The position numbers were made by a program, and so were the translations under genes. This document shows, piece by piece, positions 1,938-24,593 of a DNA stretch of 64,000 bases. The notes below the pieces were generated by a model. It saw only the letters and a program-made list of their open reading frames with translations. It searched no databases and was not told where the DNA came from. Position 1 is the first letter of the stretch, and each line of letters opens with the position of its first letter. The stretch lies in contig JBDGWG010000001.1 of NCBI GenBank assembly GCA_039585235.1, forward strand, positions 1,022 to 65,021, given 5' to 3'. This DNA is from Gemmatimonadota bacterium (GTDB taxonomy: Bacteria; Gemmatimonadota; Gemmatimonadetes; Palauibacterales; Palauibacteraceae).

Positions 1938-2389
1938 CAGGTCCTCTTGCTCACGACGATCTCGTCACCCCGGACATTGACGTCGAATGCGTCGAGCGGC
2001 CGCGGAGGAGGACCCTGAATGTTGCGTCCCGTCAGATCGAAATGGCCGTTGTGGCACGCGCACCAGATGTGCGAGATGTCGTCACGGAACTGCACGGTGC
2101 AGTCCAGGTGGGTGCACACGGCGGAGAACGCGCGCAACTCACCGGACTCGGTGCGCACCAGGATGCCGGGCTTGTTGCCGAAGCGGAACGCCTTCGCCGA
2201 GTTGAGACCGATCTCGTCCGGGCCGAACGGGAGAGCGACGCTCGAGGCGGACGACTCTCCCGCCTCGGGCGGGATGAGGTAGCGCGTCACGGGATACAGC
2301 ATGGCCACCGCGAAACTCCCGGCGCTGGTTCCCAGCAGCCAGTTCACGAAGGCCCGGCGCGACGACTTTGGCGAATCCGTCCCGGCCAT
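1937..2389 (-). CDS. petA: Rieske [2Fe-2S] iron-sulfur protein with Tat signal
   Basis: Canonical box I CTHLDC and box II CACHNGH. N-terminus [20 protein letters not shown] is a twin-arginine signal/TM anchor. The upstream 144 aa of the listed ORF is R/G-rich low complexity, so the start is taken at the internal ATG, giving about 150 aa. Confidence 0.85.
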
Positions 2390-2421
2390 GCGATTTCTCC
2401 CGTCTGACTCAGGCTCGCGGC

Positions 2422-7530: not shown

Positions 7531-10425
7531 CTAGCGGTAGCCGATTAACGCCGAGTAGACGATGTGGAGAACCAGGAATATTCCGATCCCGAGCATCGTG
7601 AACCCCACGACCCCGAAGATCAACTCCACTCGGCGTGGGTACGGTGGCACGAGGCGCTCTTCGAACTCTCCTGAAGCCACCATGCGTTCGTATTCCCTCG
7701 GCTTGTCCCTCTTCAGCTCCTCCACGGGTACGCGCCCCGTGAAGATCACCGGATCCATAGGGAACTTGTCGAGCCGGAAGTGAGTGTTGAAGAAGTGGAT
7801 CGTGAAGATGAACGCCACGGCCAGCAGCGCCTCATCGCTGTGGATGATGGTCGCCACATTCACCAGCCAACCCGGCAGGATGATCGTGAACAGCTCGGGG
7901 AACCAGAGCAGAAGGCCCGTGGAGCCAATCACGAACATCCCCCAGAACACGGCGAAGTAGTCGAACTTCTCCCAATAGGTGTATCGTCCGTAGTCCGGCC
8001 GGGGTCCCCAGCCCATGAACCACCTCACGGAGGCCCTAAACTCCCGGACGTCCGTCTTGTTGAACACGAGCGAGTCGCGCGACGTGATGAACTGGAGCCA
8101 CGTCTGACCGGCGCGGATTCTCTGCTTGCGCGCGTCGAACAGATGGACGAAGAACACCGAGAACAGCGCGATGGCGCCGATCCTGTGCCACACCCCCATG
8201 GCCTCGTAGCCGCCGAGCAGCCAGGCGAGCGTCTGGGCCCATCCCATATACGAGAACTTCAGGGCCATGCCCGTCAGGGCGAGGAGCATGAAGCTGACCA
8301 TCATGACGCCGTGCATCGATCTCTGGAACTTCGTGAAGCGTCGGTACTGCAGCGGTGGATCCGCTCCTTCCTCTGCCGCCACCGGCTCGTGTTTCCAGTC
8401 CTCCGGCGATCGCCACAGGCGCCACAGCCAGGCGAAGGTGTGAATACTGGCGAAGGTCAGAGTCCCGATCAGAAGGCTCGCCATGAACCAGAAGGTCCAG
8501 AACAGCCAGGGGTATTGCTCCGGGTCGTGGTGCGTTGCGTGCGTCAGATACCCCGTGAAACGCCGGTTCGCCCCCGGATGGCACTGAGCGCATGTCTCGA
8601 CGATGTTCCGGCGACTGAGGGTCGACGCCGGTTCCGTCGTGGGGAGGACGTTGTGCGTGCCGTGGCAATCGTAGCACTTGGCCGCGGTGGCCGCCCCGGC
8701 TCTGGACACCTTCCCGTGGTACGTATCGAAGAAGGTCTCTGATTCGTCCTCGTGGCACCTTCCACACTGGCTCATCATCAGCATGCGAAAGTCGTCGCGA
8801 TCCGTACGGCTGATCGTGTGCGACGTGTGGCAATCCTCGCACGTCGGGTAGTTGTGATCCCCCCCTCCGTTGGCGAAGTCGCCGTCTTCGGGCCAGTGCA
8901 CGCTTTCGCGGAACTGCTCTTCGATCCCGTGGTGACACTCGCCGCACGTCCCGGCGACGTTGTTCGGATTGATCGTAGAGGCGGCTTCCCCGGCGGGCAG
9001 CTCCGTGTGCGCCCCGTGACAGTCGGTGCAGGTCGCCGTGACTACGAGTCCGCTCTGGAGCAGTCCCTTGCCGTGGATGCTCATCTCGTAGCCCTGGACG
9101 ATATCGGCTCCGGTGCGCTCAATCCGCCGCGCCGCCGGTTCTCCCGCCATATGGCACCGGGAGCACAGGTCCGGAACGTTGCGCGGATAGATCGGCGAGG
9201 ATGGATTCGTTTGCTCGAACTCCGCGTGGCGCTCGTGGCAGTCGCCGCACGTGGGCGCGTCTGCGTCGCCTTGAGCCGCCAGCGTTCCGTGCATGCTGGA
9301 GCCGAATTCCTCTATCTGCACCGGGTGGCAGATGGCACAGTCAACCTCGGGCTCGATCGCCTCACACGGCCGTTCCTCGTAGATCGGTGTCACGTCGACG
9401 TGACACTGGGAGCACCCCGTCTCGGCATGCCCGGACTCGGCCCTCACCGACTGGTCTACGAAGAGGGATCGCTGCACCCCCCCCTCCTCTTCGACCACCA
9501 ACTCGGGGTCTCCGTGGCATTCCAGGCAGTCCTGTGTCGCGACCCCGGCGTCGTAGAACACGCGGCGGATCTTGTGCGGTTGATGGCAATCCACGCAGGG
9601 CGGGATTTTGTGCGGCTCTTCCTCCCACAGGCGTCCCTCGATGGCCTGCAGGTGAACCTCCTCGATCCTGCCGTGGCACTGCATGCACGTTCCGGCCACG
9701 TTCTCGGCGTGGATGCTGGATCGGTCGTCGGTGTGGGGAAGGATGAAGTGCGATGTGTGACAGGACGTGCAGACGGCCGTGACCGTCAGTCCCTGCTGGA
9801 ACAGTCCCGCCCCATGAATGGAAAGAGAGTAGTTCTCCAGGATCCGGTCCTGGGGGATGTCGAGTCTCTCCGACACCTCCGTACCTTCCTGGTGGCACTC
9901 GCCGCACAGGAAGGGGATGTTCATCACCGACGTGGACGAGGCCGGATCGCGGGAGGAGCGTACGTCATGTGTGCCGTGGCAGGTCGCACACGAGGGCGCG
10001 AGCGGGTCGCGCCGCGCGGCTGCCTGCCCGTGCAGGGACTGGTTGTGTTCAGCCCGCTGCGTGCCATGACACCGACCGCAGGTCGCGGGCGCCCGGTCTT
10101 CCGGGTGCGGGAACGTGAGGCCCTCGTGACAGTCCACACACCGCAGGCGGCCGTGGATCGAAGCGTCCAGCGTCTCACGTGTGACCACGAATCGGTCGCC
10201 GTCATCCCGGCTTTCCCAGAAAGCAGGGTTCGCGTGGCACATGAGGCAGTCGACTTCCTGTGCCTCCACTCGGTCCGGGAGGAGAGCGACCAGCCCGATC
10301 GCCAGGGCGATCCCGATCGTGCCTCGATATGCGGTCAGAGTCCGCAAGTCCATCGGATCTCCGGATATGTGGTATGTGTGAGTTCGTTTCCTTGGCCCGG
10401 ACACACCGCGACGCTCGACCGGCAA
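7531..10425 (-). CDS. Fusion protein: ~19-heme c-type cytochrome domain + C-terminal dihaem cytochrome b (HydC/FdnI-like) membrane domain
   Basis: About 19 CXXCH in the first ~630 aa. The C-terminal ~330 aa has 4-5 TM helices with conserved His (WHRIGAIALFSVFFVHLF; IIHSDEALLAVAFIFTIHFF), typical of membrane cytochrome b of the formate dehydrogenase/hydrogenase gamma family. The start may be the internal ATG at 10353 (MDLRTLTAYRGTIGIALAIGLVALL). Confidence 0.85.
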   Translation of the reverse strand: MPVERRGVSGPRKRTHTYHISGDPMDLRTLTAYRGTIGIALAIGLVALLPDRVEAQEVDCLMCHANPAFWESRDDGDRFVVTRETLDASIHGRLRCVDCHEGLTFPHPEDRAPATCGRCHGTQRAEHNQSLHGQAAARRDPLAPSCATCHGTHDVRSSRDPASSTSVMNIPFLCGECHQEGTEVSERLDIPQDRILENYSLSIHGAGLFQQGLTVTAVCTSCHTSHFILPHTDDRSSIHAENVAGTCMQCHGRIEEVHLQAIEGRLWEEEPHKIPPCVDCHQPHKIRRVFYDAGVATQDCLECHGDPELVVEEEGGVQRSLFVDQSVRAESGHAETGCSQCHVDVTPIYEERPCEAIEPEVDCAICHPVQIEEFGSSMHGTLAAQGDADAPTCGDCHERHAEFEQTNPSSPIYPRNVPDLCSRCHMAGEPAARRIERTGADIVQGYEMSIHGKGLLQSGLVVTATCTDCHGAHTELPAGEAASTINPNNVAGTCGECHHGIEEQFRESVHWPEDGDFANGGGDHNYPTCEDCHTSHTISRTDRDDFRMLMMSQCGRCHEDESETFFDTYHGKVSRAGAATAAKCYDCHGTHNVLPTTEPASTLSRRNIVETCAQCHPGANRRFTGYLTHATHHDPEQYPWLFWTFWFMASLLIGTLTFASIHTFAWLWRLWRSPEDWKHEPVAAEEGADPPLQYRRFTKFQRSMHGVMMVSFMLLALTGMALKFSYMGWAQTLAWLLGGYEAMGVWHRIGAIALFSVFFVHLFDARKQRIRAGQTWLQFITSRDSLVFNKTDVREFRASVRWFMGWGPRPDYGRYTYWEKFDYFAVFWGMFVIGSTGLLLWFPELFTIILPGWLVNVATIIHSDEALLAVAFIFTIHFFNTHFRLDKFPMDPVIFTGRVPVEELKRDKPREYERMVASGEFEERLVPPYPRRVELIFGVVGFTMLGIGIFLVLHIVYSALIGYR

Positions 10426-10540: not shown

Positions 10541-12520
10541 TCAAGATGTCACATGTTCGGTGGGTGCGTCCGCTTCCCCGGACTCGGTCGCCACTTTGTC
10601 TTCGTGCCCTGAAAGGCCGTTCTGCGCGTCATCACCGCCCGCGAGCTCCTCGTCATACCAGCGGCCGTGCACCGCCCTGGCCTCATGCTCGGGCATCTTC
10701 CCCGTCAGCCAGATCCAGCTCATCGGATAGACCTCGGGGTGGAACAGCACGAAGAAGAAGTGCCACACCACGATGGCCAGCGTGGCCAGCCAAGCCTCAT
10801 AGAAGTGGATGGTTTCAGAAATGGACACGATCCACGTGGGGAACAGCCCGGTGGCCCAGGAGGGGAACCACAGGACCACACCGGTGAGCGCCATGAGAAC
10901 CGTACCCCACACCAGCGCCCAGTACTCCGCCTTCTGGGTGTAATCGTACCGTCCGAATCGAGCCCGATGCGGGGAGCGCCACGTGTAGAAGCGCATGTTG
11001 TCGACGAATTCCTTCGCGTCCCTGACGTTAGGCGTCATCGCCTGGAACTCTTCCCTGCCGCGTTTCATGAACATGATGTACAGAACGTGGACGATCCCGA
11101 ATAAGATCAACCCGACGCCCAGCACGCGGTGCAGGGTCGATCGCACGGGTTCCGCCAGATAGGCGAGGCCCGTCACTCGCGCCCAGCCAGCTTCCGGGTA
11201 CCGGAGGGCGAATCCTGTGACGACCAGCAGGATGAAGGATGTGGCCAGCATGGCGTGCTGCGCGATCTGGATCCGGTCGAAGCGCAGGAAGCCTCGCTCG
11301 GCTCCATCCCGCCGCCGCTTCTCGACCATGTAGTAATTGAAAATGATCGCGTTGTGGATCGCCATTCCTCCGATGACGACCGCAATCAACGCGATATAGA
11401 TCGCGCGCACGATCCGCCGGCCCTTGTTCGTCGCGATCGAGGCTGCCCGATGGTCCCCTTCGTGACATTGCCGGCACGTGGCCACCACGTTGCCTTCCGC
11501 GACCGACGACTCCGGGTCGTCTGCCGGGAGCACGAAGTGGGTCGTGTGGCAGCTCACGCACGTGGCCGAGGTCTGACTGGCCCGCCGAGTCGCCCACCCG
11601 TGGTAGCTGTCGCTGTAGGAGAGGACAACCTCCTCCTGCAGACTGTACTTGGTGATGATCACGGGGTCGTTATGGCAATCGCCGCACAGCTGGGCAGCAA
11701 GATGCCCGGAGTGCGTACCGGCGTCGGGGTTGGCCGGATGCAGAATGAGGTGCTCGCCGTGACAGTCCGTGCACGTGGGGCTGTCGCTCACGCCCGCCGC
11801 CACCGCCCTGCCGTGGATCGAGCGGTCGTAGATCTCCGTGATGTTCCCGTGACACGCCCCGCACGTCGCCGACACGTTCCGCCGGTTGATCCTGGACTCG
11901 GGGTCTGAGTGACCCCTGAGATCGTGGACGCCATGACAGTCCGTGCAAGTGGCGGCCTCCGAGGGGCCGTTTCCATTCGCGGTCCCGTGCACGGAGCGGG
12001 CGTACTGCAGAGCCGGCGCCGGCAACTTCAGGTACTGATCGGTCAGCAGGCCACCCGTGCTGTGACACTCCGTGCACGTCTCGGCCACCCGCGCGTGGTA
12101 CGTGTGCGACTCCGGGTCGGTGCTCCGACGAATGTCGTGCGCCCCGTGGCAACCGGCACACGTCGGAGCCCGCGGGTTGCCGCGCTCCAGTGCGTACCCG
12201 TGCACGCTACCGGAATACTCTCGGCCTTCCCCGCCGTGGCACCCGCCGCAGCGAACCGGGGTGTACTCCTCGGGGTGGGGGTAGTTGAAGGCCTGGTGAC
12301 AGGTGATACAGGACATTCCGAAGCCGCCGTGCACCGAGCCGGCGAACTCTTCCTGCGTGACGACGAGGCGGGCGGAGTCTGCCCGTCCGGCGAAGTTGGC
12401 GGTATCTCCGTGGCAGGCGAGACAGAAACGGTTCTCCTGCGCGGAGAGACTGGTGGCGAATATGGCAACGCCAAGACCGGCCACCAGAATACGGGCTGGA
12501 TGGGGCCAATGGCTCAACAT
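10541..12520 (-). CDS. Fusion protein: 11-heme c-type cytochrome domain + C-terminal dihaem cytochrome b membrane domain (CbcL-like architecture)
   Basis: Signal peptide, eleven CXXCH in the N-terminal ~350 aa, then a ~300-aa polytopic domain with conserved His in TM helices (IAQHAMLATSFILLVVTGFAL; LHRVLGVGLILFGIVHVLYIMF; ETIHFYEAWLATLAIVVWHFFF). A paralogous architecture to 7531-10425. Confidence 0.85.
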   Translation of the reverse strand: MLSHWPHPARILVAGLGVAIFATSLSAQENRFCLACHGDTANFAGRADSARLVVTQEEFAGSVHGGFGMSCITCHQAFNYPHPEEYTPVRCGGCHGGEGREYSGSVHGYALERGNPRAPTCAGCHGAHDIRRSTDPESHTYHARVAETCTECHSTGGLLTDQYLKLPAPALQYARSVHGTANGNGPSEAATCTDCHGVHDLRGHSDPESRINRRNVSATCGACHGNITEIYDRSIHGRAVAAGVSDSPTCTDCHGEHLILHPANPDAGTHSGHLAAQLCGDCHNDPVIITKYSLQEEVVLSYSDSYHGWATRRASQTSATCVSCHTTHFVLPADDPESSVAEGNVVATCRQCHEGDHRAASIATNKGRRIVRAIYIALIAVVIGGMAIHNAIIFNYYMVEKRRRDGAERGFLRFDRIQIAQHAMLATSFILLVVTGFALRYPEAGWARVTGLAYLAEPVRSTLHRVLGVGLILFGIVHVLYIMFMKRGREEFQAMTPNVRDAKEFVDNMRFYTWRSPHRARFGRYDYTQKAEYWALVWGTVLMALTGVVLWFPSWATGLFPTWIVSISETIHFYEAWLATLAIVVWHFFFVLFHPEVYPMSWIWLTGKMPEHEARAVHGRWYDEELAGGDDAQNGLSGHEDKVATESGEADAPTEHVTS

Positions 12521-12735
12521 ATGGTGCCGCGTCCCTATTTGTGGTGGAGCGAGGGGGCTCCGGGCGGGAAACGCAGCACCATTCGTGCCGCGACGACGGC
12601 TCGCCGACCCGCTGCCTGGCGCGGAGATGCGAGCGAGGTGAAGTGCCTGCGTCAGAGCAAGTTACGGGAAGGCAGCCCCGAGTTTGGCAGGGCGGTCAGC
12701 GCAGGCCGCTCCGCCGGCTACGCCCAGAGGCCGGC

Positions 12736-14703
12736 CTATTGTCCCAGCGCCGGGACCTCATGGCACATCTCGCACGCTACCGGGGCGTTGTGCTCCACCC
12801 GGTCGGCATGGCACACCGTGCACACGTTGCGCGACCAGGCGGCCACGCCTTCGATTGCCTCACCGTGGCAGACGGCGCATCCCTGGTGAGCCCCGACGGG
12901 ATGGATCTGCAGGACGCCTCCCCGATGGCAGCTCAGGCACGTGGCTTCCGGCTGATGATGAGCGCCGTGACAGTTCTCGCACACATCAGCGCTCGGTGAG
13001 CCCGGGCTGTCGCCGTGGCACGTGGCGCACGCGAATCCGAGGGCCACGTGTGTCGGGTGAGGGAAATCTCCCGTGGCAGTGGTAATCGTGCCAGTCGGAG
13101 CGCGGGCGCCGCCCGCGTGGCACCGTTCGCACCCGATGGCTCCGCTGTGGTGACAGTCGGAGCACGCCGCCCGCGAGCCGAGAGCCATCCCGCCGTGCTC
13201 CTCCAGGCCCGTGTGACAGGCCGAGCACGGGAGGTTCGCCTCCTTCACATGCGGCTGATGCGAGAAGCGCGTACCCTGCCACACGCCTTCCTGGCGATCC
13301 ACGCCCAGGTGGCAGCCCAAACATGCGTTCTCCGCAACCGGTGTGCCGAGGCTCACCGTGGGCGGACGGTAGTCAAGACCGCCGCTTCGGGCGGCCCGAT
13401 CCACGTACTCCACGACCGCGCGCAGAAGCGCATCCGCATACCCTATGTTGTGTGCGCTCTGTCCCACCGAGACGAGTTCGACGTTGTCGGCCGCCAGGGC
13501 CAGCAAGCTGTCGGCCGTGGCGCGCTGCGCGAAAGAGCCGGTCCGGGGTGCCGAGGAGGCCGCTCGCACGATCGACGACACTCGCTTCAGCTTGCCGTCC
13601 ATCTCCGCCTGCCACGACGGCAGGATGTTGGCGTACTTGGTCCCGTGGCACGCCAGACAAGTAGCCTCCCCCGCCGCCTGGACCTGTTCGTGACCGGCGA
13701 TTTCACGTGGGAGGCCGTGGCAGCTCCCGCACGAGACACGGGCCTCGTACATGGCGCTCGGATCGTCCTCGGCGCCATGGCCTCCCGTGCCAGTGTACAG
13801 GTTGCGTTGCGCTGCGTGCGTACCCTGGTGGCAGGCCGTGCAGTCGAGCTCGAACGTGTCGGCGTGTGAGACCACCTCGTGCGCGATCGGCCGGTGACAC
13901 AGCTGACACTCCACGTTGTGCTCCCCGAGGTGCACCTCGTGCACAAGGGTCGCATCCGCGAACAGGGCGACCCTCTCCGGCTCGTTGTGACACCCGAAGC
14001 ACCGATCCTGCTCGGCCGCCCCGTCGCCCGACGTCACGCGGTCGTGACACGAGATGCACGATACCATGTCCCGCACGTACTGCGGATGATCGATCACGCC
14101 CGTCGCAGTGGTGATGAGCGGCGGTTCCACGTGGCAGCCCGTGCACCCGGCGATGGGCTCGCCTTCAGGGCGTCCCCGAAAGTGGCACAGAAAGCAGGTG
14201 CTCTTCGTGACCGCGACGTGATCTCCCTGCACGATCTGCGAGTGGCAGCTCGTGCACCGAAGCTGCTTGCCGCGCCGATGTGCAATCAGGTGATGCCGAT
14301 GGTCGAAGCGGACGCCGAGGAAAGTGAGCTCGCCCTCGATCTTGCGTGTCGAGTGGCACCCCGAACGCAGACACGCCGCATCCTCGATCTCGGCCCATGG
14401 CTTCGTCCCGTAGGTGCCCGTGACGTACTTCACGACCTGGTTGGCCGCCTGCATCTTTCCCATCGCCTCGGCCTTGATCCCGGGGGCGTAATGGCACTTG
14501 ATGCAGGGCACATCCTGGTGAGTGGAGGTCGTCCACGAATCGTAGTAAGGCTGCATGTTGTGGCAGTTCTTACAGAAACTGGGCCGCGCCGCGTACTCGA
14601 TGAACCCTACGGTCCCGAGCCCGGCCAACAGGATGAGGAGAATGATCCCCTGGACGACTACTCGAAGCAATCGCCTCCGCTTCTCGGGGTCGTGGCGGGT
14701 CAT
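12736..14703 (-). CDS. NapC/NirT/NrfH-family membrane quinol dehydrogenase module fused to a ~21-22-heme cytochrome c domain
   Basis: N-terminal TM (LLRVVVQGIILLILLAGLGTVGF) followed by the NrfH/NapC signature PSFCKNCHNMQPYYDSWTTSTHQDVPCIKCHY. The remaining ~580 aa carry ~19 more CXXCH plus one CX4CH (CLRSGCH). The internal ATG at 14703 is chosen as start (MTRHDPEKRRRLL) because it overlaps the TGA of the upstream gene as ATGA; the ORF track extends to 14799. Confidence 0.85.
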   Translation of the reverse strand: MTRHDPEKRRRLLRVVVQGIILLILLAGLGTVGFIEYAARPSFCKNCHNMQPYYDSWTTSTHQDVPCIKCHYAPGIKAEAMGKMQAANQVVKYVTGTYGTKPWAEIEDAACLRSGCHSTRKIEGELTFLGVRFDHRHHLIAHRRGKQLRCTSCHSQIVQGDHVAVTKSTCFLCHFRGRPEGEPIAGCTGCHVEPPLITTATGVIDHPQYVRDMVSCISCHDRVTSGDGAAEQDRCFGCHNEPERVALFADATLVHEVHLGEHNVECQLCHRPIAHEVVSHADTFELDCTACHQGTHAAQRNLYTGTGGHGAEDDPSAMYEARVSCGSCHGLPREIAGHEQVQAAGEATCLACHGTKYANILPSWQAEMDGKLKRVSSIVRAASSAPRTGSFAQRATADSLLALAADNVELVSVGQSAHNIGYADALLRAVVEYVDRAARSGGLDYRPPTVSLGTPVAENACLGCHLGVDRQEGVWQGTRFSHQPHVKEANLPCSACHTGLEEHGGMALGSRAACSDCHHSGAIGCERCHAGGARAPTGTITTATGDFPHPTHVALGFACATCHGDSPGSPSADVCENCHGAHHQPEATCLSCHRGGVLQIHPVGAHQGCAVCHGEAIEGVAAWSRNVCTVCHADRVEHNAPVACEMCHEVPALGQ

Positions 14704-16016
14704 CCTGCCACCCGGCTCGGATCCGAGCCCGGTTCGGTGCCCCGGAGACGCCACAGCCGGGAGCCGGCCAATACGATCGTGGCGAGCGCCAGGAACCACA
14801 CGGGGATGAGGAAGAGCTTGTGCTCCCAGCGCTCCTCGGCACTCACCTCGGCCTCCGCGACGATGTCACGCGAGATGGAGCCGACGACTCGCTCGAGGTC
14901 CTCGAGCCGCTCCAGATCCAGCGCGTGCTGCGCCGACGCCAGCTGCCGGTATTGAGTGAGGGCCGTGCGATAACGGAACCGCGTATCGCTGACCTCGTGC
15001 CCGGCCCGCACCAGCTCGTGGATCGCCTCCGCGGCCGCATCCATCTCCCGCTCGGCGCGCACGAGGATCTTCTCGATTTCCTCGCCCAGCACGGCGGGCG
15101 CGCTCGCCGGGGCGTGGCAGCCGGTGCACGTCGTGGCCACCAGATCCGGTGGGATTCGCTCCGTAAGGTGACTGCTGTGGCACGCCGTGCAGCCGAGAAG
15201 GACCCCCTCGGCCGTGGCCCTTCCGTGTGGCCCTTCATCGAGGGCCTTTCTCGTTCCGACGTGACACCGGCCGCACACGTTCGAGATCTCGCTCACATTC
15301 GGGGGCAGGGCCGCGTGAGACCCGTGGCACCCGATGCAGCTCGGCGCCGCGAAATTCAGATCCTCGAACAGGGCTGCGCCGTGCGCGCTCCGTCGGTGGC
15401 TGCGGACCTGATCCGTGGGGATGCCGTACGGTTCCATCAAGGCGTCGTCCTCGTGGCATACGGCGCACAAGGTCGGGATATTCAGAGGGTACGCACTGCT
15501 GCGAGCGTCGTCCGCTCGAAGCGTGGTGTGCGGATCGTGGCAGTCAGAGCACGTGGGGGCGTCCTCACTGCCTCGTTCCAGGAGGAGCATGCCATGTCGG
15601 CTGGTGCGCAGCTCGGCGATCTGGTCTGCGGGAAGACCGTACTGACGCATCGCGTCGGGATCAGCGTGACAGCTGGAGCACACCTCGACCGTAGCCAGCT
15701 TGCCCAGAGACCCGCGGAAGTCACCGCCGTGCGCCCCGGGAATCTCGAACGAGTCCGGGTCTCCTCCGTGACAGTCGTGGCACCGGACGTTTCTGTCGGA
15801 GTGCACTCCGAGCAGATACGCCCTCCTCTTGTCCGCGTGACAGATGAGGCAGCCGTACTGCGGGTCGATCCCGCCGGCTTCCTGCGGGACGGCCTCGCCA
15901 GAAACGACGTGCGCGCTGACGGACGCCTCTACCATGGGTGCGCGATCGAAGCCGGTAGCCGAAAAGATGCCTGCCATGACGAGGACAAAGCCGGCCTTCT
16001 TGAGCGTCGCGCTCAT
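14700..16016 (-). CDS. Nonaheme c-type cytochrome with C-terminal TM anchor (paralog of 2422-3675)
   Basis: Nine CXXCH (CLICH, CHDCH, CSSCH, CSDCH, CAVCH, CIGCH, CGRCH, CTACH, CTGCH). C-terminal helix LFLIPVWFLALATIVLAG. Blocks are collinear with the 417-aa nonaheme protein (e.g. EPYGIPTDQ conserved in both). Start overlaps the stop of the cytochrome b gene (16013-16016). Confidence 0.85.
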   Translation of the reverse strand: MSATLKKAGFVLVMAGIFSATGFDRAPMVEASVSAHVVSGEAVPQEAGGIDPQYGCLICHADKRRAYLLGVHSDRNVRCHDCHGGDPDSFEIPGAHGGDFRGSLGKLATVEVCSSCHADPDAMRQYGLPADQIAELRTSRHGMLLLERGSEDAPTCSDCHDPHTTLRADDARSSAYPLNIPTLCAVCHEDDALMEPYGIPTDQVRSHRRSAHGAALFEDLNFAAPSCIGCHGSHAALPPNVSEISNVCGRCHVGTRKALDEGPHGRATAEGVLLGCTACHSSHLTERIPPDLVATTCTGCHAPASAPAVLGEEIEKILVRAEREMDAAAEAIHELVRAGHEVSDTRFRYRTALTQYRQLASAQHALDLERLEDLERVVGSISRDIVAEAEVSAEERWEHKLFLIPVWFLALATIVLAGSRLWRLRGTEPGSDPSRVAG

Positions 16017-17278
16017 TCTCCGGGACCCTCCTCCCCCGCCTCGGCTTCCGCCGCTTCACCCTCAGCCTCATCGACCGGTTCTGACGAGGGCGGCGCAGGG
16101 ATGGCCCTTTCCTCCAGGATGCGGGACTCGACCCCGGCGCTCGGTGTGACCGAATCGACGCGGCTGCCGAGCGCCCAGAACACGAGAAAACCGAGGAAGA
16201 AAGCCAGACCGATCGCCGCCGCCACAGGACGCTTGCGCAAGGCAGCCGCACTGCCCCGGTCGACGAGCGGGAGAAGCACGAGCATCATGCCGAGCGCCGA
16301 GAAGCCAACGAAGCCCCACACCCCCAGGTAACGGATCAACCCGAGCGACACGTCGACCACGATCCACGTCGACACCAGCTCTCCCGGGAGCTCGAACGGA
16401 GTTGCTGGGTCTCCGACGGGCCGTGGGAACAGCGCGGCGAGCGAGATCGCAATGGCCAGTACGAGGGCGCTCACGATCACGATGCGCAGAAGATGGTTGG
16501 GGAAGAACGGCACGCCCCCTCCATCCCGTTCGGCGAAGCCCGGTGGTGGGGCGACCCCGTGCTTGCGGACCACCACGAAGTGCAGCACCAGGAGTCCGAA
16601 TACGAACCAGGGCAGCACGATTACGTGCAGCGCGAAGAAGCGGCTCAGCGTTGCGCCGGACACGAACACGTCACCCGTCAGGAAGCTGGCTGCTGCTCCC
16701 CCGATCAGTGGTGCGGAGCGCGCGACATCCATCACCTCGGTAGTCGTCCAGTAGGCCCACTGGTCCCAAGGGAGGAGGTAACCCGTCGCCCCAAAGGCCA
16801 GCACGCCGAACAGGAGCAGGACGCCCACCAGCCAGCTCGTCTCCCTCGGCGGCTTGTAGGCGCCGGCGAAGAAGACGCGGGCCATGTGCGCCATGAGCGC
16901 CACGACGATCAGGTTGGCCGACCACACGTGCAGGTCGCGCAACAGCCACCCGAAGGGGACCTCCGTCGCGATGTACTGTATGCTATGGTAGGCCTCGTCG
17001 ACGGACGGACGGTAGTAGAAGGAGAGCAGAACCCCCGAAGCGACGAGGACCATGAACAGAAGATACGCGACTCCACCGAACGCGTGTTTCCAACTCACAT
17101 ATGAGGGCAGACGTCGGCTCCAGGCCTCACGCAACGCTTCGTCGATGGGAAGGCTTCGGTCGATCCGTCCGTACAGGAGGCCGACCAGCCGGAGGCCGGC
17201 GAGCAGGCTTGCGTCCGTGCTCTCCTTGATGTCGGCTCCGATCTGTCTGAGCCAGGTGCGCCCCCGTTTCTCTGCCAT
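16013..17278 (-). CDS. petB: Cytochrome b (second bc-type complex)
   Basis: 421 aa, polytopic, with the conserved His quartet (LHVWSANLIVVALMAHMARVFF; FALHVIVLPWFVFGLLVLHFVVV) and a Glu/Ala-rich acidic C-terminal tail. Confidence 0.9.
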   Translation of the reverse strand: MAEKRGRTWLRQIGADIKESTDASLLAGLRLVGLLYGRIDRSLPIDEALREAWSRRLPSYVSWKHAFGGVAYLLFMVLVASGVLLSFYYRPSVDEAYHSIQYIATEVPFGWLLRDLHVWSANLIVVALMAHMARVFFAGAYKPPRETSWLVGVLLLFGVLAFGATGYLLPWDQWAYWTTTEVMDVARSAPLIGGAAASFLTGDVFVSGATLSRFFALHVIVLPWFVFGLLVLHFVVVRKHGVAPPPGFAERDGGGVPFFPNHLLRIVIVSALVLAIAISLAALFPRPVGDPATPFELPGELVSTWIVVDVSLGLIRYLGVWGFVGFSALGMMLVLLPLVDRGSAAALRKRPVAAAIGLAFFLGFLVFWALGSRVDSVTPSAGVESRILEERAIPAPPSSEPVDEAEGEAAEAEAGEEGPGE

Positions 17279-17287
17279 GTCCTTACC

Positions 17288-17740
17288 TCAGTCCCGCGTC
17301 ACGTATACGGCGCCGTCCCTCACGAAGACGTCGTAGCGCTGAAGCGGCTCGGTCGTAAGGCCCTCGACCGCCTGGCCGCGAAGGTTGTACAACATGTGCC
17401 CGCAAGGTGAGGTCACGCGCATGGCCGCGGCGTCCCACTCGAGTAGGCACCCGTCCACTGGAGATGCCCCCTGGAGCGCCGCAAAATTGCTCTCACCGCT
17501 CCGCACCACGAGGATGGCCTGCTCCCCCCAGCTTGCCATGCGGCTGCTGCCTACGGTGAAGTCCTCGGCGCGCGCCACCCGGACTGCTACCTCGCGCTGT
17601 GCTATGATCAAGTGCTCCGGGGGGACGGTGTAGATCGCCGCGATCGCCGCCGCGATCAGGAACACGACGCCGAGTACGGCATTCAACAAGAACGTGCCGA
17701 AGTCGCGCTTGCGACCCGGTTCCGAGTGCTCTGGAGACAT
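17288..17740 (-). CDS. Rieske-fold protein with degenerate [2Fe-2S] ligand boxes, TM-anchored
   Basis: 151 aa from the internal ATG at 17740 (MSPEHSEPGRKRDFGTFLLNAVLGVVFLIAAAIAAIY...). The C-terminal half aligns with the canonical Rieske at 1937-2389, but box I reads SPVDGC (canonical CTHLDC) and box II reads SPCGHM (canonical CACHNGH), so two or three of the four cluster ligands are missing. Sits immediately upstream of the cytochrome b gene, as petA does. Confidence 0.55.
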   Translation of the reverse strand: MSPEHSEPGRKRDFGTFLLNAVLGVVFLIAAAIAAIYTVPPEHLIIAQREVAVRVARAEDFTVGSSRMASWGEQAILVVRSGESNFAALQGASPVDGCLLEWDAAAMRVTSPCGHMLYNLRGQAVEGLTTEPLQRYDVFVRDGAVYVTRD

Positions 17741-17997
17741 TGGGCTCGCAGCCTCGATAGTTGATCGCCCCGGTCGGGAAGAATCAGCAGCTCCCCCGGG
17801 CGGCTCGTGCGGGCGCTGAAAAGCTACGGCCGGTGGGGACACGATGCCAGAACGTCGGTTGGCCTGTGGAACGCGTCCAAACTCGCGTGGGGGGACGCGG
17901 TGTCCTAATTTCAAAACCACTTCGGTCGAGCGCCGGGAGAGGCTTTGTGCGTTTTCGTGCGCGCCTGGCGTGATACCAATCGCAAGGAGAGCGTAGG

Positions 17998-18384
17998 ATG
18001 ATTCGAAATGTCGTGATCACCGCCGCCGCGCTGCTGTTCGTCGCGGCCGGCTCGGCCTTCGCACAGGACGCGAAGCCGCCGGTCATGTCGCATGACCTAG
18101 AGGGCAAAGACAACTGCGTCATGTGTCACTCGGGGGCGATGGAGGGCATTCCGGCGCAGCCGGCGGACCATGAAGGTCGTGCGGTCGAGACGTGCGTCCA
18201 GTGCCATGCAGCCGACGCCGAGATGCAAACGTCTACCGCGAATGCAATTCCTCATGACCTGGAAGGCAAGGACAACTGCTCCATGTGCCATTCCGGGGCA
18301 ATGGAAGGCATGCCAGCGGCTCCGGCGAGCCACGAGGGCCGGGGAGCTGACACCTGTGAGATGTGCCACAAGCCGGCCGGCTGA
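17998..18384 (+). CDS. Small periplasmic tetraheme cytochrome c built from a tandem duplication
   Basis: 128 aa with a signal peptide (AALLFVAAGSAFAQD) and four CXXCH. Two ~45-aa repeats are nearly identical (HDLEGKDNCVMCHSGAMEGIPAQPADHEGRAVETCVQCH / HDLEGKDNCSMCHSGAMEGMPAAPASHEGRGADTCEMCH). Good SD AAGGAG 8 nt upstream of the ATG. Confidence 0.85.
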   Translation: MIRNVVITAAALLFVAAGSAFAQDAKPPVMSHDLEGKDNCVMCHSGAMEGIPAQPADHEGRAVETCVQCHAADAEMQTSTANAIPHDLEGKDNCSMCHSGAMEGMPAAPASHEGRGADTCEMCHKPAG

Positions 18385-18521: not shown

Positions 18522-20006
18522 TTACGGCGCGCTCACGCCGTACTCGTCCTCGACGGCGACGATGCTCGCTTCCAGCAGGTCCCTGATCCACGGTGGGTTG
18601 TGGGTCGTAGAGCCATACACATCCCCGCCATGGGTTGCCAGGTGGTAGTTGAAGAAGCCACCCTCGGCCACGGTGAACGTGGAGACGGTCGCGTCGATCT
18701 CGCCGCCCGGCTCGTCGAGATTGGGATCCACCTGCTCGAGCAGGGCGAGCAAAATGTCCGCCTGTGCGCGCGCGAAATCGGCCCTGACGTTCAGGATCGC
18801 GGCGGCGCCGTCCTCAGATGAGTGACAACCGGAGTCCACGCAACCCACGAATGATCGAGCCTCGGTCGTGACCGCACAGTCTGTCTCTCCGTCCGGGATG
18901 CCGTTCTCGTCCACGCAGGGGATGGCGTCGAACGTGTGCCCCACCGACTGGAACTGGAATTCGCCAGTGGCCTCGTCGGTGACCGTGTACATAGCCACGT
19001 GGCACGTCGCGCACAGCTTCTCGTTGCTGGTCGATCCGTGTGTCGCGACGACCGAACCGAGAGCCAGGCCGGAACCTGGCGGAATCCAGCCGGCCTCTCC
19101 AATCAGCAGTTCGGCCTCGGGAGCGTGCGGCTCGAGGCCGTGTGACGAGTTGGGATCCGCGACCGAACGTCGGTTGTGGCACCGCGCGCACAGGTGAACC
19201 TGCACGTCCGGCGTGGCCACCGGGAATCGAAGCTGACCATCGAAAGTGGCGTCATGCATCGAGTGGCACACGCCACAGACCACCGCGAGGGGTTCCTCGC
19301 TGTCCCTTTCCAAGTAGTCCGAGCGGACGCCCCAGGCCAGCAACGTGCCCTGGCCCCGGTGGCAACCGGCGCACTCGAGGTTGCTGGCCGCGAAACCGAC
19401 GACCTCGGAGTGTTTCGACAGCTCCCACTGCTCGACGAAGGGGTGATGCGTCCCGTTATGGCATTCACCGCATCCGTTCGTCAGGTCCGTGCCCACTGCC
19501 AGCGATGGGAGCGGCTTGGTTGCTTCGGGGTTGAGCACGTGAGCCTCGCCGGCGCCGTGACACGACTCGCATTGCACGTCGATGTATCGAAGCGTGTCGC
19601 CGGTGGCGGTGAAGGCCACGTCCTCGGTTTCCGCGTTGCCGAGCTGGCTGACCGTATGGCAGGCCTTGCAGAACTTCTGTGCATGTCCGCTCTCTTGCAG
19701 CCCCTCCCACGCCCTCGCGTGTGCCGTCGCCATCCAGCTGGAGCTCGGAGTCGCATGGCACTGCGCACAGGTCGGGTCGCCCACGCGACCCTGCACATAG
19801 CCGAGGAAGCCCCCGGCCTCCACGGGCGGGTCATCGCCGAACGGACGGTCGTTGAACACGGTGTCCTCGTCCACGCAGCCGCCCGCTAGAACGGCAAGGA
19901 AGAGCACGGCGAGGCTGGCTCTCACGGTCCGACGGAAGGAGCCGCGACGGAAGTCGGAGTCGCCCACGGTGACCTCTCCTGAAGTTGAAACTGCCGGGTC
20001 CGGCAC
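18522..20006 (-). CDS. Lipoprotein multiheme c-type cytochrome (8 CXXCH + 1 CX4CH)
   Basis: Lipoprotein signal RASLAVLFLAVLAGGC (lipobox LAGGC). Motifs are CAQCH, CKACH, CESCH, CGECH, CAGCH, CGVCH, CARCH, CATCH plus CVDSGCH. Confidence 0.85.
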   Translation of the reverse strand: MPDPAVSTSGEVTVGDSDFRRGSFRRTVRASLAVLFLAVLAGGCVDEDTVFNDRPFGDDPPVEAGGFLGYVQGRVGDPTCAQCHATPSSSWMATAHARAWEGLQESGHAQKFCKACHTVSQLGNAETEDVAFTATGDTLRYIDVQCESCHGAGEAHVLNPEATKPLPSLAVGTDLTNGCGECHNGTHHPFVEQWELSKHSEVVGFAASNLECAGCHRGQGTLLAWGVRSDYLERDSEEPLAVVCGVCHSMHDATFDGQLRFPVATPDVQVHLCARCHNRRSVADPNSSHGLEPHAPEAELLIGEAGWIPPGSGLALGSVVATHGSTSNEKLCATCHVAMYTVTDEATGEFQFQSVGHTFDAIPCVDENGIPDGETDCAVTTEARSFVGCVDSGCHSSEDGAAAILNVRADFARAQADILLALLEQVDPNLDEPGGEIDATVSTFTVAEGGFFNYHLATHGGDVYGSTTHNPPWIRDLLEASIVAVEDEYGVSAP

Positions 20007-21940: not shown

Positions 21941-22130
21941 ATAGGAGCCTACGCTAGGGAGGACATGGGGTTGGAGCAAGACTAGCCCCGCGGTCCATTC
22001 AGCTTGTGACCCGGGAAGGGCCGTCCCATAATCCCCCGCTCGACTTACGAGCGCTTTGGGCCGGGTCGTTCGGAACCCGGCGGTGTTTACAGTACGGACC
22101 CAACCAGGCCGGATGATCCGGCAGTGAGAC

Positions 22131-24593
22131 ATGTACGACCCGACGACGGTGGAAGAGAAGTGGCAGGCTTTCTGGGCCACGAAGCGGACGAACGAGCCCG
22201 ACCTCGATGCGGCGCCGAGTCCGTTCTATAACCTGATGATGTTCCCGTACCCCTCGGCCGAGGGGCTTCACGTCGGGAACCTGTATGCCTTCACGGGTGC
22301 CGACTTTCACGCGCGCTACCAGCGACTGAGGGGCCATGACGTGTTCGAGCCTATCGGGTTCGACGCGTTCGGGATTCACTCGGAGAACTACGCGCTCAAG
22401 GTCAACGCTCACCCGATGGACTTGATCCCGAAGAGCATCGCGAACTTCACTCGGCAGCTGGAGCGCTCCGGGATCATGTATGACTGGTCGCACACGGTCG
22501 AAACCACGGATCCCGATTATTACCGGTGGACTCAGTGGATCTTCCTGCAGCTCTACCACGCCGGTCTCGCGGTCAAGAAGGAGGCCCCGGTCAACTGGTG
22601 CCCTTCCTGCAAGACTGTGCTGGCCAACGAGCAGGTGGAGGACGGGAAGTGCGAGCGTTGCGGCACCGAGGTCGGGCAGCGCTTGCTCAGCCAGTGGTTC
22701 TTCCGGATCACGGAGTACGTCGAGCGCCTGCTCGCGAACCTGGACTGGATCGATTGGTCGCCCTCCACGCTCACCGCGCAGCGGAACTGGATCGGACGCT
22801 CGGAGGGAGCGCTTCTCCGATTCCGCCTGGCCGACAGCCCCGACGACACGCTCGAGGTGTTCACGACCCGGCCCGACACGGTTTTCGGCGCAACGTTCAT
22901 GGTCCTCGCTCCCGAGCACCCGCTCGTCGAGCAGCTCGCATCGGACGACCGGAGTGCGGAGGTCGAGGCGTACCGGGCGGCGGCCGTGGCCGTCGACCTG
23001 GTAGAGCGGCGGAAGGCGGATGACAGGACGAAGACGGGCGTGTTCACGGGCGGCTACGCCGTGAATCCGGCGACCGCGGAAGATATTCCCGTGTGGATAG
23101 CCGACTACGTCCTGATGGAGTACGGGACGGGCGCGATCATGGCCGTGCCCGGACACGACCAGCGGGACTTCGAGTTCGCCCGTCAGTTCGGACTGGAGAT
23201 CCGGCCCGTGGTGGCGCCTGCCGCGGTGGTCGAGGCCGCGGCGGACACGTCGTCCGTCGAACTGGATCTTGGAGACGGGGCCTTCGTCGAGCACTCCGAG
23301 GACGAGCGCCTGATCAACTCCGGCGAGTTCAGCGGCCTCCCGGCGACGGAGGGCGCGGCACGGATCGTGGAGTGGCTCGGGGAGCGGGCGCTCGGTGAGC
23401 CTGAGGTGAATTACCGACTGCACGACTGGTGCATCTCCCGCCAGCGTTACTGGGGGCCGCCGATTCCGATTCTGTACTGCGAAGCGTGCGGAATCGTCCC
23501 CGTACCGGAGGAAGACCTCCCGGTGGTGCTGCCGCACCTGGAGGACTTCAAGCCGGGCGACGACGGAATCGCTCCGCTCGCGAAGGACGAGTCGTTCTAC
23601 CGGGCCACGTGTGCGTCCTGCGGCGGTGAGGCACTCCGGGAGACCGATGTTTCGGATACGTTCCTTGACAGCTCGTGGTATTTCCTGCGGTATCCGAGCA
23701 CTGACTTCGACGACCGTCCGATGGACCCCGAGCGCACGGACCGCTGGTTGCCGGTGGACATGTACATCGGCGGGGAGGAGCACGCCGTGCTCCACCTCCT
23801 GTACTCCCGGTTCATCACGATGGCTCTCCACGATCTCGGACACGTGCCGTTCGCAGAACCGTACGTGCGGTTCCGGAAGCACGGGCTGATCATCCGGGAA
23901 GGCGCCAAGATGTCCAAGACGAAGGGCAACGTCGTGAATCCGGACGAGTACATCGAGCGGTACGGCGCGGACACGTTCCGCACATACCTGATGTTTCTCG
24001 GGCCCTACCAGGAAGGCGGCGACTTCAGGGACAGCGGAATCGTCGGGCCACAGCGTTTCCTGTCGCGCGTGTCCGATGCCGTGGTGGCCGCGGTGGAGCA
24101 GGGCACGACCGGCTGGCCGGACCCCACCGTTGAGCGCGTCATTCACCAGACGATCAGTCAGGCTACGGACGACTTCGAGAGCCTGGCGTTCAACACGGCG
24201 ATCGCTGCCTTGATGGAGCTCCTCAACACACTTCGAGCAGCCGGAAGGGTACCCACGCTGGACGAGGTCAAACCGCTCGTGATCATGCTCGGCCCCATCG
24301 CGCCACACCTCGCGGAGGAGCTGTGGCAGAAGCTCGGCGGCGAGCCGAGCCTGTTCGAGCACGGTGCGTGGCCGACGTTCGACCCCTCCAAGCTCGCCAC
24401 GGATACGGTGGAGATCCCAGTCCAGGTGAACGGCAAACTGCGGGCGACGATATCGCTGGAACGGGGCGCGAGCGAAGAAGCCGCATCCGCCGTGGCACTG
24501 GCGAACGAGGCAGTCCAGCGTCACATCGGGCGAGCTTCCATCCGAAAGACGATCTACGTCCCGGATCGGTTACTGAATCTGGTCGTAGGCTAA
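22131..24593 (+). CDS. leuS: Leucine--tRNA ligase
   Basis: 820 aa. N-terminus MYDPTTVEEKWQAFW; HIGH-region variant PYPSAEGLHVGNLYAFTGADF; KMSKS motif AKMSKTKGNVV; CP1 editing domain and anticodon-binding C-terminus. Confidence 0.95.
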   Translation: MYDPTTVEEKWQAFWATKRTNEPDLDAAPSPFYNLMMFPYPSAEGLHVGNLYAFTGADFHARYQRLRGHDVFEPIGFDAFGIHSENYALKVNAHPMDLIPKSIANFTRQLERSGIMYDWSHTVETTDPDYYRWTQWIFLQLYHAGLAVKKEAPVNWCPSCKTVLANEQVEDGKCERCGTEVGQRLLSQWFFRITEYVERLLANLDWIDWSPSTLTAQRNWIGRSEGALLRFRLADSPDDTLEVFTTRPDTVFGATFMVLAPEHPLVEQLASDDRSAEVEAYRAAAVAVDLVERRKADDRTKTGVFTGGYAVNPATAEDIPVWIADYVLMEYGTGAIMAVPGHDQRDFEFARQFGLEIRPVVAPAAVVEAAADTSSVELDLGDGAFVEHSEDERLINSGEFSGLPATEGAARIVEWLGERALGEPEVNYRLHDWCISRQRYWGPPIPILYCEACGIVPVPEEDLPVVLPHLEDFKPGDDGIAPLAKDESFYRATCASCGGEALRETDVSDTFLDSSWYFLRYPSTDFDDRPMDPERTDRWLPVDMYIGGEEHAVLHLLYSRFITMALHDLGHVPFAEPYVRFRKHGLIIREGAKMSKTKGNVVNPDEYIERYGADTFRTYLMFLGPYQEGGDFRDSGIVGPQRFLSRVSDAVVAAVEQGTTGWPDPTVERVIHQTISQATDDFESLAFNTAIAALMELLNTLRAAGRVPTLDEVKPLVIMLGPIAPHLAEELWQKLGGEPSLFEHGAWPTFDPSKLATDTVEIPVQVNGKLRATISLERGASEEAASAVALANEAVQRHIGRASIRKTIYVPDRLLNLVVG

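Follow-up and report, generated by a model that had tools for sequence, protein, structure and literature searches.

Within a 64,000-nucleotide stretch of DNA from a Gemmatimonadota bacterium (assembly GCA_039585235.1, contig JBDGWG010000001.1; hereafter the window, in whose coordinates positions are given), the gene at 17288-17740 on the reverse strand encodes a protein with the fold, membrane anchor and genomic position of a Rieske subunit, in which all four positions that ligate the [2Fe-2S] cluster are substituted. Here we describe this Rieske-like protein, hereafter RL, its protein family and the operon that it heads. We consider it likely that RL carries no cofactor and has no redox role, serving as a structural or 'lid' subunit in an oxidoreductase between quinone and multihaem cytochromes, which is derived from a bc complex and operates without Rieske-dependent bifurcation. 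The initial annotation of the window, made from the letters alone, had offered two alternatives, a structural, non-redox subunit or a cluster held by atypical residues. The former is favoured by ligand loss throughout the family, by purifying selection, by retention of the two cysteines of the disulfide pair and by the loss of the PEWY motif from the partner cytochrome b.

The Rieske-like protein and its ligand boxes

The features of RL, together with the canonical module to which it is compared, are the following.

17288-17740, reverse strand: RL gene, 150 amino acids (open reading frame, BLASTP, AlphaFold2 with Foldseek, a family of ~90 sequences, and the ratio of nonsynonymous to synonymous substitution rates, dN/dS)
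17627-17701, reverse strand: transmembrane anchor, residues 14-38 (AlphaFold2 helix), with RKRDF before it
17603-17623, reverse strand: hinge PPEHLII, residues 40-46 (mean entropy 0.71 bit over residues 39-50; low predicted local distance difference test score, pLDDT)
17447-17464, reverse strand: box I, SPVDGC in place of CTHLDC (read from the DNA)
17393-17410, reverse strand: box II, SPCGHM in place of CACHNG (read from the DNA)
17342-17362, reverse strand: 'Pro loop', GLTTEPL in place of GPPPRPL (alignments; G127, L128 and L133 invariant)
840-3675, reverse strand: canonical module, with a 9-haem cytochrome at 2422-3675, a Rieske protein at 1937-2389 and a cytochrome b, CytB1, at 840-1937

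Translation of RL was taken to start with the ATG at 17740, which gives 150 residues, and not with the GTG at 17920 from which a longer open reading frame is possible, because the ATG start fits the lengths of the homologues: 77 database sequences have 142-150 residues, with few outliers, and the gene callers applied to identical contigs pick the ATG as well.

That the product adopts a Rieske fold, as first proposed, was borne out by pairwise, profile and structural comparisons. BLASTP aligned RL with the canonical Rieske protein of the window (1937-2389, reverse strand) at an E-value of 2e-9, with 20% identity and a single one-residue gap over 149 residues. A profile of 33 RL-family members, run against the sequences of the PDB, retrieved the Rieske protein of Chlorobaculum tepidum (8hn2) with an E-value of 4.5e-12 in an alignment that has no gap across the two boxes; PetC of cyanobacteria and plants and Kuenenia Rieske proteins came next. 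In an AlphaFold2 model built from the family alignment, the pLDDT of residues 51-150 exceeds 90, residues 14-38 form a helix, in agreement with the N-terminal transmembrane anchor described initially, and the linker has low confidence, as expected for a flexible tether between anchor and head. Foldseek placed this model closest to 8hn2 among PDB structures (E-value 8e-9, target template modelling score 0.80), and the top 50 matches were Rieske-fold proteins; other matches were Kuenenia kuste4569, arsenite oxidase small subunits, Rieske ferredoxins, the Rieske proteins of b6f and bc1 complexes, and NirD. The similarity to Rieske proteins thus goes well past what chance would give.

Domain models respond weakly to this protein. 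The only Pfam model that RL touches is Rieske_2 (PF13806), with 22.9 bits against a cut-off of 27, while its canonical neighbour matches Rieske and TM_PetC. Across the 33 family members PF13806 gave weak matches in 28 (best E-value 1.7e-6). PF00355 gave no match for the RL of the window and matched a single one of the 33 family members (E-value 0.004), and with the PetC models of NCBIfam RL scored 22 bits, under the cut-offs of 154 and 250.

The spacing of RL had been described as agreeing residue for residue with the canonical protein, and it does: box I begins at residue 93 in RL and 92 in the canonical Rieske, box II at 111 and 110, so that the spacing of 18 residues is the same in both. 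The box sequences SPVDGC and SPCGHM were likewise reported correctly. In box I the ligand Cys is replaced by Ser and the ligand His by Val, in box II the ligand Cys by Ser and the ligand His by Gly, and each box keeps its disulfide Cys. The three losses claimed initially thus stand, including that of the box II Cys, which had been given as probable, and a fourth, that of the box II His, had been missed. A His does lie one position past the box II ligand site, and in the family this position varies (H/Y/T/N/F). With 4 of 4 ligand positions substituted, RL is predicted to be unable to bind a Rieske-type [2Fe-2S] cluster. In alignments with 8hn2 and with the Rieske protein of the window, C98 and C113 fall on the second Cys of box I and box II, respectively, and they probably form the periplasmic disulfide of the fold.

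The same ligand loss had been suggested as something to look for in orthologous loci, and it is found in ~90 homologues. A word-indexed search returned 77 RL homologues with 44-100% identity, and a profile search of 1.84 billion representatives added ~15 more divergent RL clusters before canonical Rieske proteins set in. In the profile alignment of all matches, 89 sequences carry SPxDGC...SPC or divergent variants thereof (GTGDGC, DPYDDC, STLDGC), and below the family in the ranking nearly all matches have CxHxxC...CxCH. A core alignment of 33 RL sequences has S93, P94, C98, S111, P112 and C113 invariant and D96 and G97 nearly so. The former His positions are occupied by V/I/L/A/G/R/Q/K/F in box I and by G/T/S/A/D/R/N in box II, and divergent members have G, D or A instead of Ser93 itself. 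The family also varies at the site of the quinol-contacting His, so RL should be unable to join in proton-coupled quinol oxidation.

The former cluster loops are nevertheless the best conserved segments of RL, with a mean entropy of 0.27 bit (box I) and 0.57 bit against ~1 elsewhere, and the hinge, PPEHLxIP, is conserved too. Comparison with six orthologues gave dN/dS values of 0.12-0.19, by which the gene is judged to be under purifying selection and functional. A sequencing frameshift, named initially as what might undo the reading of the boxes, is excluded by the recurrence of the motifs in ~90 independent sequences. Together with the constant length of these sequences, their invariant motifs, the dN/dS and a protein that is 100% identical on 7 contigs, this leaves a pseudogene, mis-assembly or sequencing error with a negligible probability.

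Neighbour joining with 40 canonical Rieske sequences recovered the RL family as a single clade in 199 of 200 replicates; the tree did not resolve the sister group of the family. The 52 species-representative loci come from uncultured soil and sediment bacteria and none from an isolate. Forty-nine are labelled Gemmatimonadota, among them Candidatus (Ca.) Palauibacterales and Ca. Kutchimonas, two 'uncultured bacterium' and one Akkermansiaceae, the last probably mis-binned. Public names for the family conflict, and range over NirD or nitrite reductase small subunit, Rieske Fe-S protein, ubiquinol-cytochrome c reductase iron-sulfur subunit and hypothetical protein.

The twin-arginine translocation (Tat) motif is kept, as RRxF, in 6 of 6 canonical paralogues. 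RR-D-[FL] (as GRRRDFG) occurs in 4 of 81 RL sequences, the family having x-R-D-[FL]-G at this site, and in RL members of the RRERDL type the RR lies upstream, outside the Tat context. RKRDF(GTFLL) of the window RL reads as a decayed remnant of the twin-arginine motif. Such decay would fit a protein that no longer needs export in a folded, cofactor-loaded state, as supporting and not decisive evidence.

The four-gene operon and its cytochrome b

RL is the first of four genes, the others being listed here with the motifs discussed below.

16013-17278, reverse strand: CytB2, the partner cytochrome b, 421 amino acids, b6 and subunit IV fused (Pfam PF00033, E-value 6e-50)
16346-16372, reverse strand: ef-loop motif of CytB2, STWIVVDVS, at the PEWY position (MAFFT and phmmer)
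14700-16016, reverse strand: c-type cytochrome with nine CXXCH motifs and a C-terminal transmembrane segment, 438 amino acids, cytochrome c1 analogue
12736-14703, reverse strand: 21-haem cytochrome with an N-terminal membrane module of NrfH/NapC type, 655 amino acids from the ATG at 14703 (Pfam Cytochrom_NNT)
14554-14574, reverse strand: CKNCHNM (CXXCHxM), first haem motif after the transmembrane helix of the 21-haem protein, kept in orthologues

The stop codon of RL and the start of CytB2 are separated by 9 nt that contain AAGGA, and the CytB2 and 9-haem genes, as well as the 9-haem and 21-haem genes, overlap by ATGA start/stop sequences. From this arrangement the four genes are predicted to be translationally coupled. 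A promoter and terminator scan of 12400-18100 found nothing above chance. Together the four proteins would hold two b and 30 c-type haems.

RL had been placed as the petA of a second cytochrome b, a position which the wider comparison upholds. Open reading frames were called in all fetched loci and matched to the proteins of the window. An orthologous cytochrome b directly follows RL in 51 of the 52 loci, the remaining contig ending too early, and genes for the 9-haem and ~21-haem cytochromes come next in every locus with enough flank. The reverse test, from three cytochrome b orthologues, found RL upstream in 3 of 3, with the boxes SPADGC/SPCRY, SPIDGC/SPCRY and SPADGC/SPCSY. RL and this cytochrome b are accordingly regarded as obligate partners. 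In the closed genome CP070722.1 (L059) the four genes stand alone, and they can therefore be regarded as the minimal unit.

In 52 of 52 orthologues CytB2 has H117, H131, H218 and H233 unchanged. They align with the haem-ligand histidines of cytochrome b6, which we take to be those numbered H86/H100/H187/H202; CytB2 is accordingly predicted to retain both b haems. In the b6 alignment CytB2 has no counterpart of the cysteine to which b6f haem ci is bound. The site at which CytB2 departs from its relatives is the quinol oxidation (Qo) motif. A MAFFT alignment of 53 CytB2 orthologues with the CytB1 group has S[ST]W[IV] where PEWY stands, and an independent phmmer alignment to b6f subunit IV puts LEILPEWYLYPVF opposite GELVSTWIVVDVS. 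Among 120 further CytB2 orthologues listed, 114 have S[ST]W[IV] and none a PEWY-like motif; no outgroup stood among the matches listed. Small residues take the place of the aromatic wall of the Qo pocket (PEWYF..Y) in CytB2, and STWxVVDVS is strongly conserved throughout its family, with an invariant Asp. The published Qo motifs are PEWY, PDWY, PVWY, PPWF, APWY, GPWY and PDWF, and S[ST]W[IV] falls outside this catalogue (PMC4122944).

Nine haems were counted in 47 of 49 orthologues of the 9-haem cytochrome. In the 21-haem cytochrome the first haem motif is CXXCHxM in 43 of 44 orthologues, and a CXXCHxM after the transmembrane helix is what we take to be the signature of the menaquinol-interacting haem 1 of NrfH. 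The NrfH model TIGR03153 matches the 21-haem protein with an E-value of 1.3e-12 over model positions 5-136 of 138, at 48 bits against an equivalog cut-off of 134, so that the likeness of the N-terminal module to NrfH is put here as a predicted similarity at the level of the domain only.

Paralogues, sister modules and surroundings

The window itself holds a paralogous canonical module. Its Rieske protein has CTHLDC/CACHNGH boxes and an SRRAF Tat motif, and its CytB1 has PEWY at 1080-1091. The 9-haem cytochromes of the two modules are 34% identical (E-value 3e-56; 438 residues against 417 in the protein at 2422-3675), and the cytochromes b 42% over the first 255 residues. Both modules lie within 10 kb of each other in seven further loci (L019, L033, L038, L041, L047, L057 and L058). 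After its CxCH the canonical Rieske has G and F at +2 and +4 (CACHNGHF), which mark a low-potential (~150 mV) Rieske protein of menaquinol type (PMC4122944). That RL is a recent duplicate of this Rieske protein found no support, as the corresponding Gemmatimonadota proteins score 37-52 bits against the RL profile and the Rieske protein P0093, from another lineage, 84.

P0093 (in locus L061) and P0099 (L062; 72 bits) are the top canonical Rieske proteins against the RL profile. Both lie on contigs of uncharacterised metagenomic lineages that differ clearly in base composition (46% and 63% GC) and both belong to modules of the order Rieske, cytochrome b, 9-haem cytochrome, NrfH-type 18/21-haem cytochrome. 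They keep CTHLRC/CPCH(G/N) and GPPP or GPPR. These modules differ from the RL module in their intact Rieske ligands and in having AVWY or PPWH where CytB2 has S[ST]W[IV]. The CXXCHxM first haem is present in both, the 21-haem proteins of the RL module and of a sister module are 39% identical over 644 residues, and L062 is flanked by multihaem/PF01292 fusions, as is the module of the window. The L061 Rieske protein has a perfect Tat motif, KRRDFLNWL, against RKRDFGTFLL in RL. Since this four-gene order recurs, with an intact Rieske protein, in two other lineages, the RL state appears to be the derived one, the cluster having been lost from a working ancestor. The relation of RL to P0093 and P0099 is thus read from gene order, not from the neighbour-joining tree. 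The NrfH-type and 9-haem subunits, being present in these cluster-bearing modules, were not recruited as substitutes for the cluster.

Some further proteins that came up in the searches have unusual boxes or starts. The L062 Rieske protein (L062:8001-8429, CTHLRC/CPCHNGV) is encoded by an open reading frame that begins right after a stop codon with VRTDRGRILKWL and has no twin-arginine pair, which points either to a non-canonical export signal or to an unusual start. P0095 (L063:351-794, on a 1 kb metagenome contig of 32% GC) is a Rieske-like protein directly upstream of a cytochrome b; with CPRTGC/CPCDYSA it keeps four Cys and has lost both His ligands, and it may represent a second, independent ligand loss in a Rieske/cytochrome b module. 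Degenerate boxes were also seen in the Rieske-like proteins P0102, P0104, P0130, P0139 and P0147 (216-238 residues; one labelled Planctomycetota) and P0111, P0131 and P0167. In a provisional alignment register these include box I sequences of the type THMEDC, with the first Cys missing, and tandem or triple Rieske proteins with one ligand-losing domain, e.g. CTSDGC/CPCDGSV.

Multihaem cytochromes surround the RL operon on both sides.

17998-18384, forward strand: tetrahaem c-type cytochrome, 128 amino acids (Pfam), divergently oriented from RL
18522-20006, reverse strand: OcwA-related multihaem cytochrome, 494 amino acids (PDB 6i5b, E-value 7e-11)
10541-12520 and 7531-10425, reverse strand: multihaem-c/PF01292 cytochrome b fusions, 659 and 964 amino acids
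5929-7383, reverse strand: predicted outer-membrane beta-barrel, 484 amino acids (AlphaFold2 and Foldseek)

The 494-residue cytochrome has eight CXXCH motifs and one longer motif, and 6i5b is its only significant relative in the PDB; 6I5B is OcwA, a cell-surface terminal reductase of Thermincola (PMC6703420). One to three copies of a homologue of this cytochrome precede RL in most loci. The two fusions, each an N-terminal multihaem c domain with a C-terminal PF01292 cytochrome b of HydC/FdnI type, have the domain architecture of Geobacter CbcL, and similar fusions flank the RL module in many loci. The 484-residue protein is secreted, without a Pfam match and conserved in Gemmatimonadota. Its AlphaFold2 model (pLDDT 83) is an all-beta barrel of ~26 strands, for which Foldseek found outer-membrane porins and usher pores, and on this model the barrel may form a porin-cytochrome conduit with the multihaem cytochromes among which it lies. 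The surroundings of RL also include a cytochrome with MtrC/F-like domains. The tetrahaem protein at 17998-18384 is an internal tandem duplication, with HDLEGKDNC[VS]MCHSGAMEG[IM]PA..HEGR...C..CH occurring twice, and the protein is found in the closest relatives only.

Elsewhere the RL module adjoins NrfD/4Fe-4S-type quinone-interacting modules (L058:13828-16631 and L060:4980-10638), joined in L060 by a molybdopterin oxidoreductase and a class I cytochrome c. The terminal partners of the RL module may thus vary.

The window has 66% G+C and contains many long spurious open reading frames antisense to genes, for example at 13879-14955 (forward), 14820-16331 (forward) and 21999-24524 (reverse). 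An open reading frame of 841 residues, for instance, is antisense to one of 820 residues that by eye resembles leucyl-tRNA synthetase (22131-24593, forward). As such frames abound, the length of an open reading frame is in itself no evidence of a gene in this window.

Proposed function of the RL complex

We propose that RL, the dihaem CytB2, the 9-haem cytochrome c1-like protein and the 21-haem, NrfH-anchored cytochrome form one complex derived from a Rieske/cytochrome b complex. The transmembrane helix and head of RL would hold this complex together and cover the former Qo opening, without the head carrying electrons; in canonical complexes, docking of the Rieske head closes the Qo opening of cytochrome b (PMC4122944). 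Menaquinone and the periplasmic multihaem network would exchange electrons by way of c-type haems, with quinol being handled at the NrfH-type haem, at the Qi site on the negative side (N-side) of the membrane, or at both. The two b haems would conduct electrons across the membrane to the N-side (Qi) quinone site, in the manner of the dihaem cytochromes b of redox loops. The complex would feed, or be fed by, the periplasmic and outer-membrane multihaem network, and the direction would decide whether it spends or generates membrane potential. Dissipation of membrane potential for the sake of low-potential acceptors has been proposed for Geobacter CbcBA (bioRxiv 10.1101/2021.04.15.440034). Our certainty as to the path and direction of the electrons is low.

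No Rieske-dependent, bifurcated Q-cycle would take place in such a complex. When its Rieske protein is missing, Rhodobacter bc1 is known to persist as a stable b-c1 subcomplex whose Qi site works but which has no Qo turnover, and by this analogy a complex with a cluster-less subunit should not bifurcate either; from it we infer the absence of bifurcation at the Qo site of the RL complex.

Several observations weigh against RL as a plain structural subunit of a non-bifurcating complex. All RL sequences are derived from metagenomes. The Tat argument is weakened by the cluster-bearing Rieske protein of L062, which also has no RR, and it is for this reason that the decay of the motif is not decisive. 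The glutamate of PEWY is already gone in the cluster-bearing sister modules (AVWY in the cytochrome b of L061, PPWH in that of L062), so the loss of the acidic Qo residue is not tied to the loss of the cluster, and the conserved Asp of STWxVVDVS in CytB2 could stand in as proton acceptor. That the loops are so very strongly conserved shows that they have a specific role, which could exceed a structural one. Finally, D96, C98, S111 and C113 are near-invariant and close together, and an unconventional metal or cofactor site at these residues is possible. On balance, that bifurcated quinol oxidation should persist, either with a c-type haem on the RL loops or, less likely, with a redox centre made of the Cys pair or of the D-C-S-C residues, appears unlikely to us.

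The first of these forms would be an exchange of haem for the iron-sulfur cluster: the loops of a non-redox RL would dock a c haem of the 9-haem or NrfH-type subunit over Qo. This would account for the former cluster loops being the most conserved part of RL and for the conserved hinge, for the retention of both b haems and of STWxVVDVS with its invariant Asp, and it could draw on the 30 c-type haems that the operon encodes. Against this, the NrfH-type and 9-haem subunits predate the cluster loss, the quinol-binding His position is variable and the aromatic wall of Qo has been replaced by small residues, and we therefore hold a docked haem with persisting bifurcation to be quite unlikely.

RL could also remain a redox carrier by means of a metal centre with atypical ligands, e.g. 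Asp96, Cys98, Ser111 and Cys113, which is the second of the alternatives offered initially. Ligation of Fe-S clusters by Ser, Asp and other non-Cys residues occurs in other proteins, Ser for Cys is the most conservative replacement of a ligand, and the four residues are invariant or nearly so. Yet the two positions that would bind the second, His-bound iron hold variable residues that are not ligands, Ser93 is G, D or A in divergent members, and the His that follows box II varies. Cys98 and Cys113, which are retained, correspond to the canonical structural disulfide pair and not to ligands, which in itself speaks against such a site, and the Tat motif expected of a protein exported with its cofactor has decayed in most members. 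This alternative is accordingly disfavoured, and its probability appears small.

Smaller still is the probability that RL is an exchangeable inhibitory or regulatory isoform which competes with the Rieske protein at 1937-2389 for one or the other cytochrome b, comparable to the swapping of PetC isoforms in cyanobacteria, and in this way turns a complex off or retunes it. The co-occurrence of canonical and RL modules in the window and in seven other loci would permit such competition, but RL adjoins and is coupled to a cytochrome b of its own, one that has lost PEWY, the RL module of L059 is alone in its neighbourhood, and the identity between RL and the canonical Rieske is only 20%.

Cys98 and Cys113 might instead form a redox-active disulfide at a quinone site, in principle a thiol:quinone relay like that of DsbB or VKOR. 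They are the only invariant redox-capable residues of RL and lie at the tip that faces Qo in canonical complexes, and the Rieske disulfide can be reduced in vitro. As this disulfide serves a structural purpose in every canonical Rieske protein, RL has no CXXC and the operon is dominated by haem proteins and encodes no thioredoxin-like partner, we find this very improbable.

With RL as a cofactor-less structural subunit, the complex can be set beside known systems. Like the Rieske subunits PetC, PetA and QcrA (the nearest solved ones being 8hn2 and Kuenenia kuste4569, 9rk4), RL has the anchor, hinge, beta-sandwich, box spacing and disulfide cysteines; like theirs, its gene stands directly upstream of that for cytochrome b, in an operon with a C-terminally anchored c-type cytochrome. 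It differs from them in its ligand positions (C to S, H to V, C to S, H to G), in GLTT for GPPP, in the decayed Tat motif and in failing PF00355 and the PetC cut-offs.

NirD, the nitrite reductase small subunit (PDB 4aiv, 3c0d), is, as we take it, also a Rieske fold without a [2Fe-2S] cluster; it is a Foldseek match of RL, and PF13806 is the one Pfam model that RL touches. However, NirD is soluble, cytoplasmic and a partner of NirB, whereas RL is anchored and by sequence closer to Rieske proteins of bc/b6f type, and nirB was not found in any inspected RL locus. An identity of RL with NirD was rejected in view of the transmembrane anchor, the neighbouring cytochrome b and multihaem genes and a PF13806 score below threshold.

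A cytochrome b of b6 type that is combined with multihaem cytochromes and lacks a Rieske cluster is also found in Geobacter Cbc6/ExtMNOPQS (ExtP/ExtQ, with the iron-sulfur protein ExtO), and the 'PDWF-FeS' branch of Kao and Hunte (2014; PMC4122944) is likewise a cytochrome b without a Rieske cluster. Those systems have another iron-sulfur protein and no Rieske-fold subunit, whereas the RL module has kept the Rieske fold and has no iron-sulfur protein; an ExtO-like one was not found in the RL operon. The ExtP model of NCBIfam scores CytB2 at 216 bits, under its cut-off of 290, and CytB1 higher, at 226. In tying the menaquinone pool to periplasmic multihaem cytochromes, the proposed complex would resemble NrfH/CymA, ImcH, CbcL and CbcBA, membrane-anchored haem proteins among which the energy gained varies with the route taken (bioRxiv 10.1101/2021.04.15.440034). 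CbcL and CbcB have a PF01292 cytochrome b of HydC/FdnI type and no Rieske-fold subunit, while the partner of RL is of bc1/b6 type; CbcBA and CbcL were therefore set aside as homologues and are regarded as functional analogues only. A search of the full-text literature, in which subscription journals were mostly outside coverage, turned up no account of a Rieske subunit that lacks its ligands and is encoded beside a cytochrome b.

All Rieske/cytochrome b complexes are regarded as sharing an invariant catalytic core, the Rieske cluster and a Qo site of PEWY type. The RL lineage has kept the fold, the anchor, the dihaem cytochrome b and the c1-like cytochrome under selection, while the cluster was discarded and the Qo motif rewritten. 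With the sister modules that have an intact Rieske protein it makes a natural 'before and after' pair, which opens the question of what the Rieske head and Qo pocket add beyond electron transfer, such as assembly, closure of the site or prevention of short circuits, and of how a bc scaffold becomes another kind of quinone:cytochrome oxidoreductase. Should a docked haem or a new redox centre prove true, RL would belong to a bc-type enzyme in which nature has found a functional replacement for the Rieske cluster, a part supposed to be indispensable. For the Gemmatimonadota the conflicting names have a practical consequence: in metabolic reconstructions from metagenome-assembled genomes of soils, sediments and groundwater, a second complex III or a nitrite reductase may be counted although it is absent, and the probable connection of the quinone pool to a large multihaem network, which seems suited to extracellular electron transfer, may be overlooked.

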